DNA of 27,033 bases from Caulobacterales bacterium (GTDB lineage Bacteria; Pseudomonadota; Alphaproteobacteria; Caulobacterales; Aquidulcibacteraceae). Below, piece by piece: positions 1-4,691 of this stretch (position 1 is its first letter; each line of letters starts with the position of its first letter). The stretch covers positions 1 through 27,033 of the forward strand of contig JBEVOS010000329.1 in the NCBI GenBank assembly GCA_040507435.1, read 5' to 3'. The translations under genes and the position numbers were made by a program. The notes beneath the pieces were generated by a model. It was given only the letters and a program-made list of their open reading frames with translations, did no database searches and had not been told where the DNA came from.

Positions 1-2
1 AG

Positions 3-179
3 GACGATGAGAAACATCCTCGTAAAATGGTGATGAATGCGTTTCGCCGCCGCGGCTGGCCTGTCAACAAAACGCAAGGCGTATATGTCCGCTACTTCTC
101 GAATGGATATCCGACGCGTCTGGGCGAGATTTCGGCGGAACCATTTGATTGGTTTGATAAAGTCGAGAAGTATGCCTGA
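3..179 (+). CDS. C-terminal fragment (58 aa, 5' end outside the window) of a probable metallo-beta-lactamase-fold / ComEC-like hydrolase
   Basis: Frame 3 is open from base 3 to TGA 177-179: DDEKHPRKMVMNAFRRRGWPVNKTQGVYVRYFSNGYPTRLGEISAEPFDWFDKVEKYA*. It is absent from the ORF track and overlaps the next ATG (172) by 8 bp. The KHP-x4-NAFxRRG tail resembles, from memory, accessory MBL-fold hydrolases; the catalytic HxHxDH motif is not in the window. Confidence 0.55.
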   Translation, partial: DDEKHPRKMVMNAFRRRGWPVNKTQGVYVRYFSNGYPTRLGEISAEPFDWFDKVEKYA

Positions 180-906
180 CTTTGCTAAGCTTTTTGACAG
201 CTACAATCGTCAGGCTCGCCTGTATCCATCGCTAATCGCAATTTTGCCAGCGCTTATCGTCGTGCTTTTAATTTTGCCTACGGTTTTCTCCGGAAATATT
301 GGAGCAGTATTTCTTGGCATAATCGGTTCAACTGGGTTGCTATTTTACATTGCAGAAGCAGGACGCTCTTTGGGAAAGCGTGCTGAGACTGAATTGCTGG
401 TGAAATGGGGCGGTTGGCCAACAACAATTTGGCTGCGGCACGAAAGCGAGTTTTTATCACGGACCACAAGGGGGCGATATCTCGCTAAATTAGGCGAACG
501 AATTCCGAACCTGCAGTTTCCAACGCCTGAATCTGAGCGCCACAATCCACGAGCTGCCGACGAACTCTACGCCTCAGCTGTTGACTGGCTCAAAGAGCAA
601 GCCAGAGGCCCTAAGTACCGCCTAGTTGCCGTTGAAAATGCTGCCTATGGCTTCCGGCGCAATCTCTTTGGTCTAAAAGCTATCGGGGTTCTAATTTCGG
701 TCGTGGCGATACTTTCGATCGCTGCTCTAATTGTCTTTAGTTGGCCTAAGGTTGGATGGGAGCAACAAAATGCAATTCAAGTCGTCGCAGGCATTGCCGT
801 GGTATTTATCCTGCTTGCGTGGCTTTGGCTTGTAAATGAAGACTGGGTTAGACAGGCGGCGGATGCCTATGCGAGAGCGCTTCTCGCATGTTGCGAGAAT
901 ATTTAG
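172..906 (+). CDS. Hypothetical membrane protein, about 4 TM helices, 244 aa
   Basis: Track ORF 37..906; ATG 172 is preferred because it couples to the upstream stop. Hydrophobic segments LYPSLIAILPALIVVLLIL, IGAVFLGIIGSTGLLFYI, IGVLISVVAILSIAALIVF and IQVVAGIAVVFILLAWLWL flank a soluble loop (KWGGWPTT...ENAAYGFRRNL). GC is low. Confidence 0.8.
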   Translation: MPDFAKLFDSYNRQARLYPSLIAILPALIVVLLILPTVFSGNIGAVFLGIIGSTGLLFYIAEAGRSLGKRAETELLVKWGGWPTTIWLRHESEFLSRTTRGRYLAKLGERIPNLQFPTPESERHNPRAADELYASAVDWLKEQARGPKYRLVAVENAAYGFRRNLFGLKAIGVLISVVAILSIAALIVFSWPKVGWEQQNAIQVVAGIAVVFILLAWLWLVNEDWVRQAADAYARALLACCENI

Positions 907-912
907 CGCCAT

Positions 913-1848
913 CTACTCAAACAGCACGGACACACTCTGCTCCGTCGCGATCCGCTGGATCGCATCGCCCATCAGCGCCGCGACCGAGATCACATGCACC
1001 TTCTTCGACGCTAGCGCTTTATCGCTCGGTTGAATTGAATCGGTGACGACCAATTCCTTCAACCCGCTTTTCTCGATCCGCTCGACCGCGCCGTTCGACA
1101 ACACGCCATGCGTTGAATAGGCCGAGACAGACTTCGCGCGCGCGCTCATCAGCGCGTCGGCCGCGTTGCACAGCGTTCCGCCGCCATCGATGATGTCGTC
1201 GATCAGCAGGCAGCGCCGTCCTTCGACATCGCCGATAATGTTCATCACTTCAGAGACGCCCGCTTTCTCGCGCCGCTTGTCGACGATGGCGAGATCGGCG
1301 CCGAGCCGGTTCGCCAGCGCGCGGGCGCGCACCACGCCGCCAACGTCCGGCGAGACGATCATGAGATCGGACGGGTCGCCGAACCGCTCGCGCACATCCG
1401 CCTCGATGACGGGCGTGGCGAACATGTTGTCGGTCGGGATGTCGAAAAAGCCCTGGATCTGCCCGGCGTGGAGTTCGAGCGTCAGCACCCGGTCGGCGCC
1501 CGCTTTCTCAATGAGATTGGCGACGAGCTTGGCCGAGATCGGCGTGCGCCCGCCGACTTTCCGGTCCTGCCGGCCATAGCCGTAATAGGGGATGACCGCC
1601 GTGATGCGCTTGGCGGAAGCCCGCACCAGCGCGTCGATCCCGATCAGCAACTCCATCAAATGGTCGTTCGCGGGATAGGAGGTCGATTGAATGATGAAAA
1701 CGTCCTGACCGCGGACGTTCTCCGCGATGCGGACGAAAATCTCGTTATCTTTGAAGCGTCTAAACTCGGCTTCGGCGAGCGGCGTGTCGAGGTGGGCGGC
1801 GATGGCGCGCGCCAGCTGCTGGTTGGCGTTCCCGCTAATCAGTTTCAT
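913..1848 (-). CDS. prs: Ribose-phosphate pyrophosphokinase
   Basis: MKLISGNAN start, [50 protein letters not shown]-binding [12 protein letters not shown]; SD GAGGGG upstream. Confidence 0.98.
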
Positions 1849-1975
1849 CGGCCCGCCCCTCGTGGTTGCGCGTTCCGTCTATCCCATCGCGAGAGTCGTG
1901 CAACCGCATCGTGACACTAATGTTGCGGCGCATTGTCTGCCGCGCCGGAGCGTGGCGTTTGCGCAACGAATGCGC

Positions 1976-2779
1976 TTAAGCGAGAACGATCGCCGCGCAA
2001 TTGCGTCCGTAATCGCCCTCGCTTCTCAGCACGGCGCGGCGGTTGGAGAAGAAATCCTCCGCCTCGGCGCAGGTATCGTTCGGAAGAACGCCGATCTTTG
2101 AGACGCCATGCTCCCGCAGCCGATGCGCGCAATAGCCAGGCAGGTTGAACTGATACCGGTCGCCCGCGCCGGGAGCGAAATAAAAGACGTTGGCGGAATC
2201 GTCCGCGAGGAAGCGGTCCCGGAATTCGGGGCCGACTTCGTAGCTCGCCTGCTGGATCGTGGGGCCGATGGCGCAGGATATGTCCGGGAGGCGCGCCCCG
2301 GCGCGGACCATCTCGTCGAGCGCCGCTTCGATCACCCCGCCGAGCGCGCCTTTCCAGCCCGCATGCGCCGCCCCGATCACCCCGGCTTTCGCGTCGTGAA
2401 AAAGGATCGGCGCGCAATCGGCCGTGAGGATCGAGAGCGCGATCCCCGGCTCGGTCGTCACCATCGCGTCGGCCTCAACGCCAGCGCTGGAGAGGTTGGC
2501 GTCGATCCGCACCGCCTTTGCCGAATGCACCTGGTAGAGCCCGGCGAGTTTATCCAGCGCAACGCCCATGCCCGCCGCGATCCGCGCGCGATTGGCGGCG
2601 ACGTGCGCGGCGTCGTCCTTCGAGCCGCGCCCCGCGTTGAGGCTCGCATAGATGCCGCTGGACACGCCGCCGCGCCGCCCGAAAAAGCCGTGCCGCGCGC
2701 CAATGAGCGGCGAGAAAAACGCTGGCGGCGCTTCGCCTAGAAGCCGGCCGGCGGCGGAAGATTGGGGCTTGAAAGACAT
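1976..2779 (-). CDS. pgeF: Peptidoglycan editing factor PgeF / YfiH-family purine nucleoside phosphorylase
   Basis: RHGFFGRRGGVS, QVHS, LTADCAPIL, AAHAGWKGA, AIGPTI, YEVG, FFSNRR; typical position between the methyltransferase and prs. Confidence 0.95.
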   Translation of the reverse strand: MSFKPQSSAAGRLLGEAPPAFFSPLIGARHGFFGRRGGVSSGIYASLNAGRGSKDDAAHVAANRARIAAGMGVALDKLAGLYQVHSAKAVRIDANLSSAGVEADAMVTTEPGIALSILTADCAPILFHDAKAGVIGAAHAGWKGALGGVIEAALDEMVRAGARLPDISCAIGPTIQQASYEVGPEFRDRFLADDSANVFYFAPGAGDRYQFNLPGYCAHRLREHGVSKIGVLPNDTCAEAEDFFSNRRAVLRSEGDYGRNCAAIVLA

Positions 2780-3813
2780 GTCGCTTTAAATAGGTCGCCC
2801 ATCTGATCGGGCGCGGTCAAACGCTGATAATCACGCCCAAGCTGCTCCGTGATCTCAGGGTGCTGCTGCGCCAGCGCATGGGTGCGTTGATCGAGCCCGA
2901 GCGCGCGCAGGAAATCGCGCTGCGGAATCGCATCCGCCACCGCGAGTCCGGACGCGCGCGCAAGGCGTTTGATCGCGCCGAAATCGACATGCGCCGTGAG
3001 ATCCGCGATGCCGATATCGTCGAGCACATAGGATTTTTCGTGCGCGCGCATCGCTTGCAGCGTGTCGCCCGCGCCGTCGCCGCCATAATCGATGATGAGC
3101 GCGCGCGAGGGCGCGGCGTGAAAACGCGCGGCGATCAGATCGATCCACGTGGGCAGGGCAGGTGCGATCTCCGCGATGGCGCCGTCTTCGGCATCCGCCA
3201 GCGTGGGTGGAATGATGGCCGCGCTGAGCAGCGCGATGTCGCTTGCAAGGCCGAAAGTGAGTTCGCCTTCGTCGTCGCGGCCAAGCAGCCGTTCACGCCA
3301 TTGCCCGTCGCGCCGCACGAATTGCCGGATCGGCAGGCAATCGAAAAACTCATTCGCAACGATGATCGAAGGGCCGGCGGGAATATCTTCAAACCGTTCG
3401 TGCCATGTCGCTTTCGCGCCAACGTTTGCGAGTGACGCGCTCTGCTTGCGCCTCAGCCCTTCGCCGATCTCAAGCATGTGAATGCGTGCGGCTTTACGAA
3501 ACGCGGGCGACAGCTTCGCAGCGCGCCACGCATCGCTCATCAGAACGCCGTTGCCCGGACCGAGCTCGATAAGGTTGAAGGGATCAGGCTTTCCAATCTG
3601 CTCCCACTCATGCACGCACCAAAGCCCGATCAACTCGCCGAACATCTGCGAAATTTCCGGCGACGTCGTGAAATCGCCCGTGCCGCCAATATCGGCGTTG
3701 CGGGCATAATAGCCGCCCTCCGGATCATAGAGCGCATGCGTCATGAATTGCGCCACACTCATCGGCCCGTCGATCGCGATCTGTGCAATGAGGCGCTGCT
3801 GAAGCGTTGTCAC
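2737..3813 (-). CDS. SAM-dependent methyltransferase, MidA/NDUFAF7 family
   Basis: GYY...GDFTTSPEISQMFGELIG, LIELGPGNGVLM, ANEFFDCLP, LIIDYG, ADLTAHVDF, RLTAPDQMGDLFK; start overlaps the lgt stop. Confidence 0.95.
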   Translation of the reverse strand: MTTLQQRLIAQIAIDGPMSVAQFMTHALYDPEGGYYARNADIGGTGDFTTSPEISQMFGELIGLWCVHEWEQIGKPDPFNLIELGPGNGVLMSDAWRAAKLSPAFRKAARIHMLEIGEGLRRKQSASLANVGAKATWHERFEDIPAGPSIIVANEFFDCLPIRQFVRRDGQWRERLLGRDDEGELTFGLASDIALLSAAIIPPTLADAEDGAIAEIAPALPTWIDLIAARFHAAPSRALIIDYGGDGAGDTLQAMRAHEKSYVLDDIGIADLTAHVDFGAIKRLARASGLAVADAIPQRDFLRALGLDQRTHALAQQHPEITEQLGRDYQRLTAPDQMGDLFKATCLSSPNLPPPAGF

Positions 3814-4691
3814 GCTGCTTTCTCAACGGGCGTCTTCAGCGAACGCGCAATGAGCCATGCGCCTGCGGCGATCATTGGCAGCGAAAGCAACATGCCCATC
3901 GTGACATAGCCCCGCAAAAACTCCGGCATTTGCGCGTCGGGCTCGCGAACCAGCTCAACAAGCGCGCGGAACAAGCCATACCCCGCAAGAAAAATGCCTG
4001 TATTCATCCAAGGCCGCTTCAATGAATCGAAGCGATGCGTCGCAATGAAGATGAGCGCAAACAGCACGATCCCTTCAAGCGCCGCTTCGTAAAGCTGGCT
4101 TGGATGTCGTGGCTCTGGCCCGCCCGATGGAAACGCCATCGCCCACGGCGCATCGCTTGGCCGGCCCCACAATTCTCCGTTCACGAAATTCGCGACGCGC
4201 CCGAAGAATAAGCCGATGGGCACGCAGCCCGCGACGATATCGGAAACAGAAGAAAGCGGCGCTTTCTTTTCCCGGCAGAAATAGAGCGTTGCGAGCACGA
4301 CGCCGATAAAGCCGCCGTGAAAGCTCATGCCGCCTTCCCAGATTTTCAGGATCGTGAGCGGATCGTCCGCGATCAGCGCGCGCGAAGCAGGATCGGGCAG
4401 CATGTAAAACAACACGTAGCCGAGCCGCCCGCCAACGATGACGCCAAGCGTCGCCCAAAAGAGAAAGTCGTCCGTGTCGGCGGCCGTGATCGGCGCGGCC
4501 CCAGGCGTCCACAAGCTCTGCTTGCGGATGAGATAAACCATGTACCGCCAACCCAAGACGAGCCCGGCGATGTAAGCGAGCGCGTACCAGCGCAGCAGGA
4601 ACGGCCCCAATTCCACGCTGCCGAGCGTGAACGGGCCAAGCCGCAGCGCGACCGGATCAAGATTCGGAAATTGCAGAACCGCTTCGATCAT
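3810..4691 (-). CDS. lgt: Prolipoprotein diacylglyceryl transferase
   Basis: RWYALAY, GGRLGYVLFY, WEGGMSFHGG, GRVANFVNGELWGR, RHPSQLYEA, ELVREPD, MGMLLSLPM. Confidence 0.98.
   Translation of the reverse strand: MIEAVLQFPNLDPVALRLGPFTLGSVELGPFLLRWYALAYIAGLVLGWRYMVYLIRKQSLWTPGAAPITAADTDDFLFWATLGVIVGGRLGYVLFYMLPDPASRALIADDPLTILKIWEGGMSFHGGFIGVVLATLYFCREKKAPLSSVSDIVAGCVPIGLFFGRVANFVNGELWGRPSDAPWAMAFPSGGPEPRHPSQLYEAALEGIVLFALIFIATHRFDSLKRPWMNTGIFLAGYGLFRALVELVREPDAQMPEFLRGYVTMGMLLSLPMIAAGAWLIARSLKTPVEKAA

Follow-up and report, generated by a model that had tools for sequence, protein, structure and literature searches.

Here we describe a two-gene operon, met at the left edge of a 27,033-nucleotide contig of a Caulobacterales bacterium (JBEVOS010000329.1, C38:1-27033), in which the gene for a metallo-beta-lactamase-fold (MBL) hydrolase is followed by the gene for a four-transmembrane (4TM) protein. 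The window, by which we mean the whole 27,033-nucleotide stretch, is an entire contig of a soil metagenome-assembled genome (337 contigs, 2.34 Mb, GC 0.60, 83.5% complete). The pair is a conserved operon and constitutes a previously undescribed two-gene variant tied to the ubiquitin-like operons of type 6a. On balance, we consider it probable that the window's two genes form the 3′ end of a mobile conflict module of two genes whose function is probably anti-phage and which would combine a DNase resembling those of ComEC and HamM with a membrane partner. The instance in the window is an ordinary member, truncated by assembly at a contig edge, and the interest is therefore higher for the family than for this locus.

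The MBL and 4TM genes form a conserved operon

Scanning one genome per species for a degenerate pattern (185,579 species) yielded 227 species that encode a relative of the 4TM protein, and 80 of the loci were examined. An MBL-family open reading frame (ORF) was found in 79/80 loci with a 4TM homologue, the exception being a 3-kb contig. Moreover, clustering of the ORFs from the 80 loci gave four recurrent neighbour families only, all of which are MBL or E2-E1-JAB proteins. The arrangement of the window, with an MBL of ~368 amino acids (aa), here called MBL-L, directly upstream of the 4TM gene, is found in 39 of the 80 loci, where the conserved module comprises no more than these two genes. In 21 loci the genes directly upstream are 'MBL-6a' (~397 aa) and then E2-E1-JAB (~770 aa) or split E2-E1 and JAB genes, whilst 9 loci carry a short MBL of ~270-281 aa (a tenth is ambiguous). 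A further 10 loci are arranged otherwise, most of them with an MBL gene downstream or nearby. The distance between MBL-L and 4TM genes lies between -11 and +16 bp in 36/39 loci, with overlap in 18. When loci were sampled from the MBL side, the 4TM gene was the next gene in 3/4.

The type of MBL partner changes at least 19 times on the 4TM tree, which makes the 4TM protein a shared module that has been exchanged among MBL subfamilies. L-type and 6a-type modules lie side by side in about a dozen loci. Thus one unnamed 4TM family is the constant partner of three ComEC-like, defence-associated MBL subfamilies, with or without E2-E1-JAB, and it deserves a name and a model in the defence-finder databases. 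On a Bacillus cereus plasmid, for example, RefSeq lists the pair as 'MBL fold metallo-hydrolase' and then 'hypothetical protein'.

In ~10 loci a second, short MBL gene (270-281 aa; PADLOC PDC-M48B models PDLC04674 and PDLC04673) lies directly 3′ of the 4TM gene (L027:8817-9629, L022, L041 and L100 among others), giving triplets of the form MBL-L > 4TM > MBL-S.

The truncated gene encodes a ComEC-type MBL

By its sequence, the incomplete gene at the contig start encodes the C-terminus of a ComEC-type MBL-fold hydrolase of the MBL-L subfamily. The 58-aa fragment matches positions 303-356 of 357 of the PADLOC PDC-M48B model PDLC04676 (E 4e-7) and aligns end to end, at 67% identity, with the last 57 residues (315-370) of a 371-aa protein of Bradyrhizobium manausense (L040). 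Identity to the C-termini of L040, P0130 and P0135 is 66-70%, and several metagenomic proteins with the JGI name 'beta-lactamase superfamily II metal-dependent hydrolase' are 68-70% identical. The fragment begins just before H319-P320 in L040 numbering; its residues DDEKHPRK...RRRGW...KTQG...TR...VEKYA align to H319, P320, R331, G332, T338, R352 and E368, and every conserved C-terminal position of the family is kept (His-Pro, V, A, R-G, T, R, E). The end of the protein, ...FDWFDKVEKYA, aligns with the ...VEAYD tail of L-type members.

Full-length MBL-L proteins have ~370 aa, so that ~940 bp of the 5′ part of the gene lie beyond the contig end, and the metal-binding motifs HxDxDH, TGD and PHHG are placed ~40-250 residues upstream of the contig start. 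Because the window is a whole contig, the gene was cut by the assembly and not by biology. Moreover, contigs of three soil runs were compared, and Logan contigs from two sister soil runs of the same study (X2 and X3) overlap the first 118 and 47 bases of the window, respectively, and run 472 and 323 nt further left. The truncation is therefore an artefact of assembly at roughly 4x coverage, and the missing part is present in public reads at about that depth. An exact 40-mer, with which we sought the missing 5′ part, had no match in JGI metagenome contigs, and a search for homologues among partial proteins brought up near relatives without the MBL fragment of this organism itself.

A full-length Labrys relative (P0122, 358 aa) matches PDLC04676 end to end (E 1.9e-150), scores above the Pfam Lactamase_B gathering cut-off and also matches the PADLOC MBL models LmuA (E 2.7e-23), RTasMBL (E 4e-18) and Avs1a (E 5e-12). 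With a profile of 36 MBL-L members, the MBL domains of ComEC were the only strong solved relatives (E 1.7e-13). Likewise, for the AlphaFold2 model of L040 (pLDDT 91, pTM 0.90) the best superposition is with the beta-lactamase-like domain of ComEC, 9ic4 (E 1.7e-14, TM-score 0.75 on the target), with phosphorylcholine esterases as the second-best fold neighbours. The 36 members share HxDxDH, TGD, PHHG and HP without variation, the invariant columns including H67-x-D69-x-D71-H72, D248, P277-H278-H279-G280 and H319-P320, and the protein lacks a signal peptide. MBL-L is most likely a cytoplasmic phosphodiesterase of the ComEC type and a metal-dependent DNase. The MBL domain of ComEC and HamM are both DNases, and HamM-type effectors have lately been shown to be DNA-degrading proenzymes (PMC12799240). 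Since its catalytic motifs are invariant, the MBL is favoured as a DNase effector.

The 4TM protein belongs to a large, unnamed family

The 4TM protein of the window (P0001) has at least 292 homologues of 240-300 aa, and an exhaustive profile search recovered 3,005 clusters at 50% identity, 2,328 of them at E <= 1e-10. Among the best 150 of the 3,005 representatives, all of single-domain size (158-295 aa), there is no MBL-4TM fusion. The protein has four hydrophobic segments (about 18-40, 44-63, 166-190 and 203-224), and hydropathy and charge predict an N-in/C-in topology with a cytoplasmic helical domain of ~100 aa (65-166) between TM2 and TM3. This domain is basic, with 18 K/R versus 12 D/E. 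The AlphaFold2 model is all-helical (pLDDT 91.3, pTM 0.86). In an alignment of 34 homologues (A1) the transmembrane (TM) helices are less conserved than the cytoplasmic domain, where WGGWPTT and YGFRRN motifs occur and many Arg and Glu residues are invariant; an N-terminal amphipathic stretch and a C-terminal helix ending LLACC[DE] are also conserved, and the periplasmic loops are variable. The copy in the window retains all 38 invariant columns.

Searches of Pfam, NCBIfam and PADLOC with single proteins and with 34 members returned no family for the 4TM protein, the sub-threshold matches being DUF6232, DUF2207_C and SLATT_5, of which the NCBIfam SLATT_5 match (E 0.3) is a faint trace only. 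The SLATT, S_4TM and DUF4231 models had no match at E <= 0.5 in the 34 members. One UniRef homologue is named 'DUF4231 domain-containing', a label that Pfam did not reproduce, and neither 121 genomes of the order nor the control genomes yielded DUF4231/SLATT sequences for comparison. Foldseek returned no match to the model below E 0.5 in the PDB, and the ESM Atlas yielded unnamed clusters of the same family only. A ComEC-like channel and a MotA/ExbB-like stator were considered as folds and rejected, with TM-scores of 0.2-0.3 and ComEC not among the fold matches.

The pair lies at the end of a horizontally acquired insert

The features at the left edge of the window are given in Table 1. The ORF listing holds a longer frame for the 4TM gene (37..906, 289 aa), and the alignment of 34 homologues sets the true start at 172. 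The overlap of the two genes suggests that they are translationally coupled. The GC of bases 1-906 compares with 0.599 +/- 0.029 for all 906-bp windows of the assembly (z = -3.6), of which 0.09% are as low. GC at third codon positions is 0.45 in the 4TM gene and 0.83 in prs, and in a composition profile the left-edge block is the only 1-kb block of the window with GC < 0.57. GC counts in 60-bp segments are 28/60 (181-240) and 24/60 (241-300) on one side of the junction and 41/60 (1141-1200) on the other.

Table 1. Features at the left edge of the window
Feature	Position	Strand	Remarks
3′ end of MBL gene, last 58 codons and stop	3..179	+	Frame-3 ORF open at contig start; TGA 177-179
4TM gene (P0001), intact, 244 aa	172..906	+	ATG at 172
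Overlap of MBL stop and 4TM start, 8 bp, ATGCCTGA	172..179	+	
Low-GC tract, GC 0.496	1..906		Right-hand end of horizontally acquired insert
Spacer of 6 bp, 4TM stop to stop of convergent prs	907..912		Right junction of insert
prs (core gene)	913..1848	-	Pfam Pribosyltran_N, E 1.7e-51

None of the 60 relatives searched, of which 4 share the genus, a further 32 the family and another 24 the order, gave a match to the 4TM gene. Moreover, the slot behind prs is variable within the genus: in one relative (G003) prs is followed by an abhydrolase gene and L25-pth-ychF, and in another (G001) by ArsR and two AHSA1 genes. Taken together, the atypical GC, the absence of a match in the 60 relatives and the variable slot point to horizontal acquisition. 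In the genome studied here, ychF-pth-L25-abhydrolase is found on a separate 5.5-kb contig (C223; L017:3542-5463), followed by a stretch of lower GC (0.51-0.57) in which an unassigned ORF of 148 aa and the N-terminal part of an MFS_2 transporter are encoded and which is possibly the insert's opposite end.

An earlier reading of the window, referred to here as the original prediction, had described a frame-3 C-terminus overlapping the 4TM gene by 8 bp, hand-counted GC values and a low-GC tract ending 6 bp from the prs stop, all of which proved exact. Its proposals that the fragment is an MBL-fold hydrolase and that the genes were acquired horizontally are likewise borne out. It had also taken the pair for the tail of a locus inserted behind prs; the insertion stands, and a larger locus is uncertain given the relatives in which two genes are the complete module.

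Homologues of the 4TM protein occur in Pseudomonadota, Acidobacteriota, Nitrospirota, Cyanobacteriota, Bacteroidota, Bacillota and other phyla, with near-identical copies across different phyla. They are carried by 87 plasmids, 61 of which are mobilizable or conjugative, and some loci adjoin relaxase/TrwB-like genes, transposases, integrases or recombinases. In viral collections a 4TM homologue was found in 1 of 2.9 million viral contigs and in 1 of 50,697 phage records. The two records, which may hold true phage genes or host DNA from prophage borders, are IMGVR_UViG_2636415425_000001 (L098, 31% identity) and Ralstonia phage YO009_3 (ON170032.1, 37%).

Relation to the 6a ubiquitin-like operons

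Operons of type 6a consist of an E2-E1-JAB triple-module protein beside a specialised MBL, usually as two genes (Iyer, Burroughs and Aravind 2006, PMC1779556). CapH/CapP genes precede a 6a operon that has been listed among 'known or likely' defence systems, with its last gene given just as a hypothetical protein (Lau et al. 2022, bioRxiv 10.1101/2022.04.27.489752). We suspect that this last gene belongs to the 4TM family. The original prediction had proposed a search for E1/E2 genes, which was apt in that MBL plus E2-E1-JAB plus the same 4TM family is the sister architecture of the pair.

The MBLs of the two architectures differ at their C-termini, which are ...AHG, ...PRAG or ...GFA in MBL-6a and an acidic/aromatic tail in MBL-L. 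The Gly end suggests that MBL-6a may itself be the substrate conjugated by E1/E2, an analogy being the CD-NTases, which are conjugated by Cap2 through their C-terminus. The C-terminal Gly of the MBL is thereby the suggested target of E2-E1-JAB, in operons that have been known since 2006 without a function and whose MBL has a candidate label only in PADLOC. The two-gene form offers a simple experimental entry point to the whole group.

In the window the MBL and 4TM genes have no E2-E1-JAB gene between them; the upstream side of the pair is off the contig, and homologues of E2-E1-JAB and MBL-6a were not found in the assembly, which is 83.5% complete. The E2-E1 protein of one MBL operon without a cyclase (L004:3754-5487) matches the PADLOC CBASS E1-E2 model PDLC00855 end to end (E 3.7e-187).

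Several minor observations concern these operons. Almost all MBLs linked to E2-E1-JAB (L018:4465-5619, L055, L065, L095 and others) end ...(Q/E)P(L/H)xHG, ...PPRAG or ...GFA, and the tail pattern of MBLs from two-gene modules is P-[FY]-x3-V-E-x-[YW]-[DE]. The JAB neighbour of the L004 E2-E1 protein matches CBASS JAB models, and annotation pipelines may mislabel 6a operons as partial CBASS. On 15 Acinetobacter plasmids, an example being that of A. baumannii (L103; pOXA58_005078, NZ_CP027245.2:6685-17185), the 4TM homologue follows a WYL-domain protein and not an MBL. There the 4TM gene stands back to back with an operon of a 'hypothetical' protein (397 aa) and a 'ThiF family adenylyltransferase' (751 aa), which are probably MBL-6a and E2-E1-JAB.

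Defence context

CapP was found near the module in four loci (L069, L045, L085 and L090), and type I restriction-modification (R-M) subunits lie near it in about seven. Further neighbours in some loci are a type II R-M pair, a type IIG/DrmMI-like enzyme and AbiLi/AbiLii. On an Acinetobacter plasmid a WYL-domain protein lies directly upstream of the 4TM gene, beside a ThiF/MBL operon. An anti-phage role of the pair is plausible by association, because the MBL is a component of a PADLOC 'candidate' system and a relative of HamM-type DNase effectors, because the module is linked to E2-E1-JAB, CapH/CapP and WYL regulators, and because R-M and AbiL genes adjoin it, its distribution is patchy and it is borne on plasmids.

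In a further locus (L051:5496-6733) CapP (E 9e-70) and CapH (E 2e-28) were observed divergently upstream of an MBL-L + 4TM pair. Divergent CapH/CapP genes are known from the DNA-damage-inducible control of CBASS and other defence operons.

Comparison with known systems

The MBL of the window is a member of component B of PADLOC PDC-M48 (models PDLC04673-04677). PDC-M48, which is a candidate system only, is defined with a component A, and the one model of the latter that was examined (PDLC04672, 125 positions) is absent from five genomes carrying MBL-L + 4TM. Moreover, whole-library scans of four 4TM proteins (P0001, P0007, P0069 and P0088) gave no match to PDC-M48A or to any other PADLOC model. 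With this component A model absent from genomes that carry the pair and the 4TM protein unmodelled, the pair is not PDC-M48 as defined. We found no functional study of PDC-M48 or of MBL + E2-E1-JAB in the searchable literature. The PADLOC and fold searches that the original prediction had advised for both proteins were thus productive for the MBL, which has a family model and a ComEC fold, and gave neither for the 4TM protein.

The pair resembles the 6a operons in that the same 4TM family provides their third gene in 21/80 loci and the MBLs are related, both being ComEC-like. However, the MBL of the window has the L-type tail ...VEKYA, without a ...HG, ...RAG or ...GFA end, and L-type loci have no E2-E1-JAB gene between MBL and 4TM. 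The pair is therefore not 6a. In the HamM-type pairs of Hachiman, Avs, Lamassu and DRT, a ComEC-like MBL likewise lies directly upstream of its partner (PMC12799240). There the partner is a trypsin-like protease in fusion with a defence enzyme, whereas in the module described here it is an all-helical 4TM protein with no match to a protease family. The pair is consequently not one of MBL and protease and, as the partner is a membrane protein, proteolytic activation is not expected.

ComEC, a channel for DNA uptake, carries an MBL nuclease domain at its C-terminus. It is the closest relative of MBL-L in both solved structure and sequence, and both systems unite an MBL nuclease-type domain with a polytopic membrane part. 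However, the 4TM protein resembles the ComEC competence domain in neither sequence nor fold, the MBL of the module is separate and cytoplasmic, and the module is accessory and mobile.

The order of enzyme and then membrane protein is shared with type I/II CBASS, Pycsar and the Rst hydrolase-3TM operons, and the optional insertion of E2-E1-JAB into MBL + 4TM modules mirrors type I versus type II CBASS. The original prediction had drawn on CBASS and Pycsar as precedents, and as a statement of membership this fails: no nucleotide cyclase (CD-NTase or pyrimidine cyclase) was found in the 80 homologous loci, and the 4TM protein lies outside the known TM effector families, with no match to PADLOC effector or hydrolase-TM models or to the SLATT and S-4TM families of Pfam. 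The pair is thus neither CBASS/Pycsar nor SLATT/S-4TM.

Function of the pair and alternative explanations

For the 4TM protein we favour the role of an anchor, sensor or regulator in the membrane, exerted by way of its conserved cytoplasmic face. It would be an inner-membrane protein, translationally coupled to MBL-L, with its conserved arginine-rich face in the cytoplasm, and would bind the nuclease at the membrane and hold or license it. Docking could go through the conserved acidic/aromatic C-terminal tail of the nuclease. During infection, a cue linked to the membrane or to DNA entry would then free the nuclease activity against incoming or cellular DNA. In the 6a form, covalent Cap2-like conjugation of the MBL by its C-terminal Gly would take the place of the non-covalent coupling of the two-gene form. 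Carried further, membrane-coupled nuclease immunity might be a new class, with the pair as its simplest form. A 4TM protein of orphan fold would detect an event at the membrane or in DNA entry and would license a ComEC-like DNase that is docked on its cytoplasmic domain; 6a would be the elaborated form, in which E2-E1-JAB joins the C-terminal Gly of the MBL covalently to another molecule, the 4TM protein or a lipid being candidates, and the acidic tail and the Gly end would be two tethering solutions. This extension is speculative and we think it unlikely to hold.

Several points weigh against a membrane-coupled DNase with an anti-phage role. The defence-gene neighbourhoods anticipated by the original prediction are seen in part: some loci have CapH/CapP, R-M or AbiL genes, but few of the 57 genes immediately flanking MBL-L>4TM loci are of this kind (3 type I S subunits and 2 CapP, as raw counts without a background rate). 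The searchable literature yielded no experiment on an MBL + 4TM module. The catalytic two-thirds of the window's MBL gene were not found in the 337-contig assembly by tblastn with five relatives. Moreover, the substrate of MBL-L need not be DNA, given that phosphorylcholine esterases are among the ComEC-type MBL folds. Direct contact between the MBL and the 4TM protein is something that we infer. Whether the 4TM protein is an anchor, a sensor or an effector is a guess, as it has no detectable relation to any characterised protein.

The division of labour could also be the reverse, in a CBASS-like manner. The 4TM protein would then be the killing effector, oligomerising and depolarising or perforating the inner membrane, with the MBL as sensor or activator, which might for instance bind or process nucleic acid of the phage, and E2-E1-JAB priming the 6a MBL as Cap2 primes CD-NTases. 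The 4TM gene is indeed always last in the operon, after the enzyme and E2-E1-JAB, which is the effector position in type II CBASS, and one 4TM family has been swapped among three MBL subfamilies in the way of modular effectors. The end-to-end match of an E2-E1 protein from such an operon to the CBASS model fits as well, and so does the C-terminal Gly of MBL-6a, which parallels the C-terminus of CD-NTases. However, where related MBLs occur in Hachiman, Avs, Lamassu and DRT systems they serve as the DNase effectors, and invariant catalytic motifs would be unexpected in a pure sensor. Nor does the 4TM protein fall into a known TM effector family by the SLATT, S-4TM or PADLOC effector models, and conservation in it peaks in a soluble cytoplasmic domain, where many polar residues are invariant. 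We therefore regard reversed roles as rather unlikely. A non-immune function is distinctly improbable in our estimate. It could be one of cargo or maintenance on mobile elements (addiction, exclusion or membrane-associated DNA processing in transfer), for which the frequency of the pair on plasmids and the relaxase/TrwB-like genes, transposases, integrases and recombinases beside some loci would speak. Alternatively, it could be a niche envelope function, with a phosphodiesterase that acts, together with a membrane partner, on lipid or teichoic-acid-like head groups, which agrees with the esterases as second-best fold neighbours; the defence signal among immediate neighbours is, moreover, modest. 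Against this stand the repeated linkage to E2-E1-JAB, CapH/CapP, the WYL regulator, R-M and AbiL, the existing status of the MBL as a PADLOC defence-island candidate and the near absence of the family from phage collections. An envelope substrate is further opposed by an MBL without a signal peptide and a conserved 4TM face that is cytoplasmic.

Finally, the pair in this genome could be a decaying remnant, with a truncated or inactivated MBL and an orphan 4TM gene. Just 58 MBL codons are visible, and MBL-L genes are frameshifted or fragmented in several relatives (L022, L026, L042, L072 and L078). However, the truncation point coincides exactly with the contig end and the sister-run contigs continue beyond it to the left, whilst every conserved C-terminal MBL position, 38/38 invariant 4TM residues and the 8-bp overlap are intact. 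We consider decay of this copy very improbable.

Genes to the right of the insert

Positions 913-4691 of the window carry housekeeping genes on the minus strand, namely prs, Cu-oxidase_4 (YfiH/PgeF-like), Methyltransf_28 and lgt, at normal GC.

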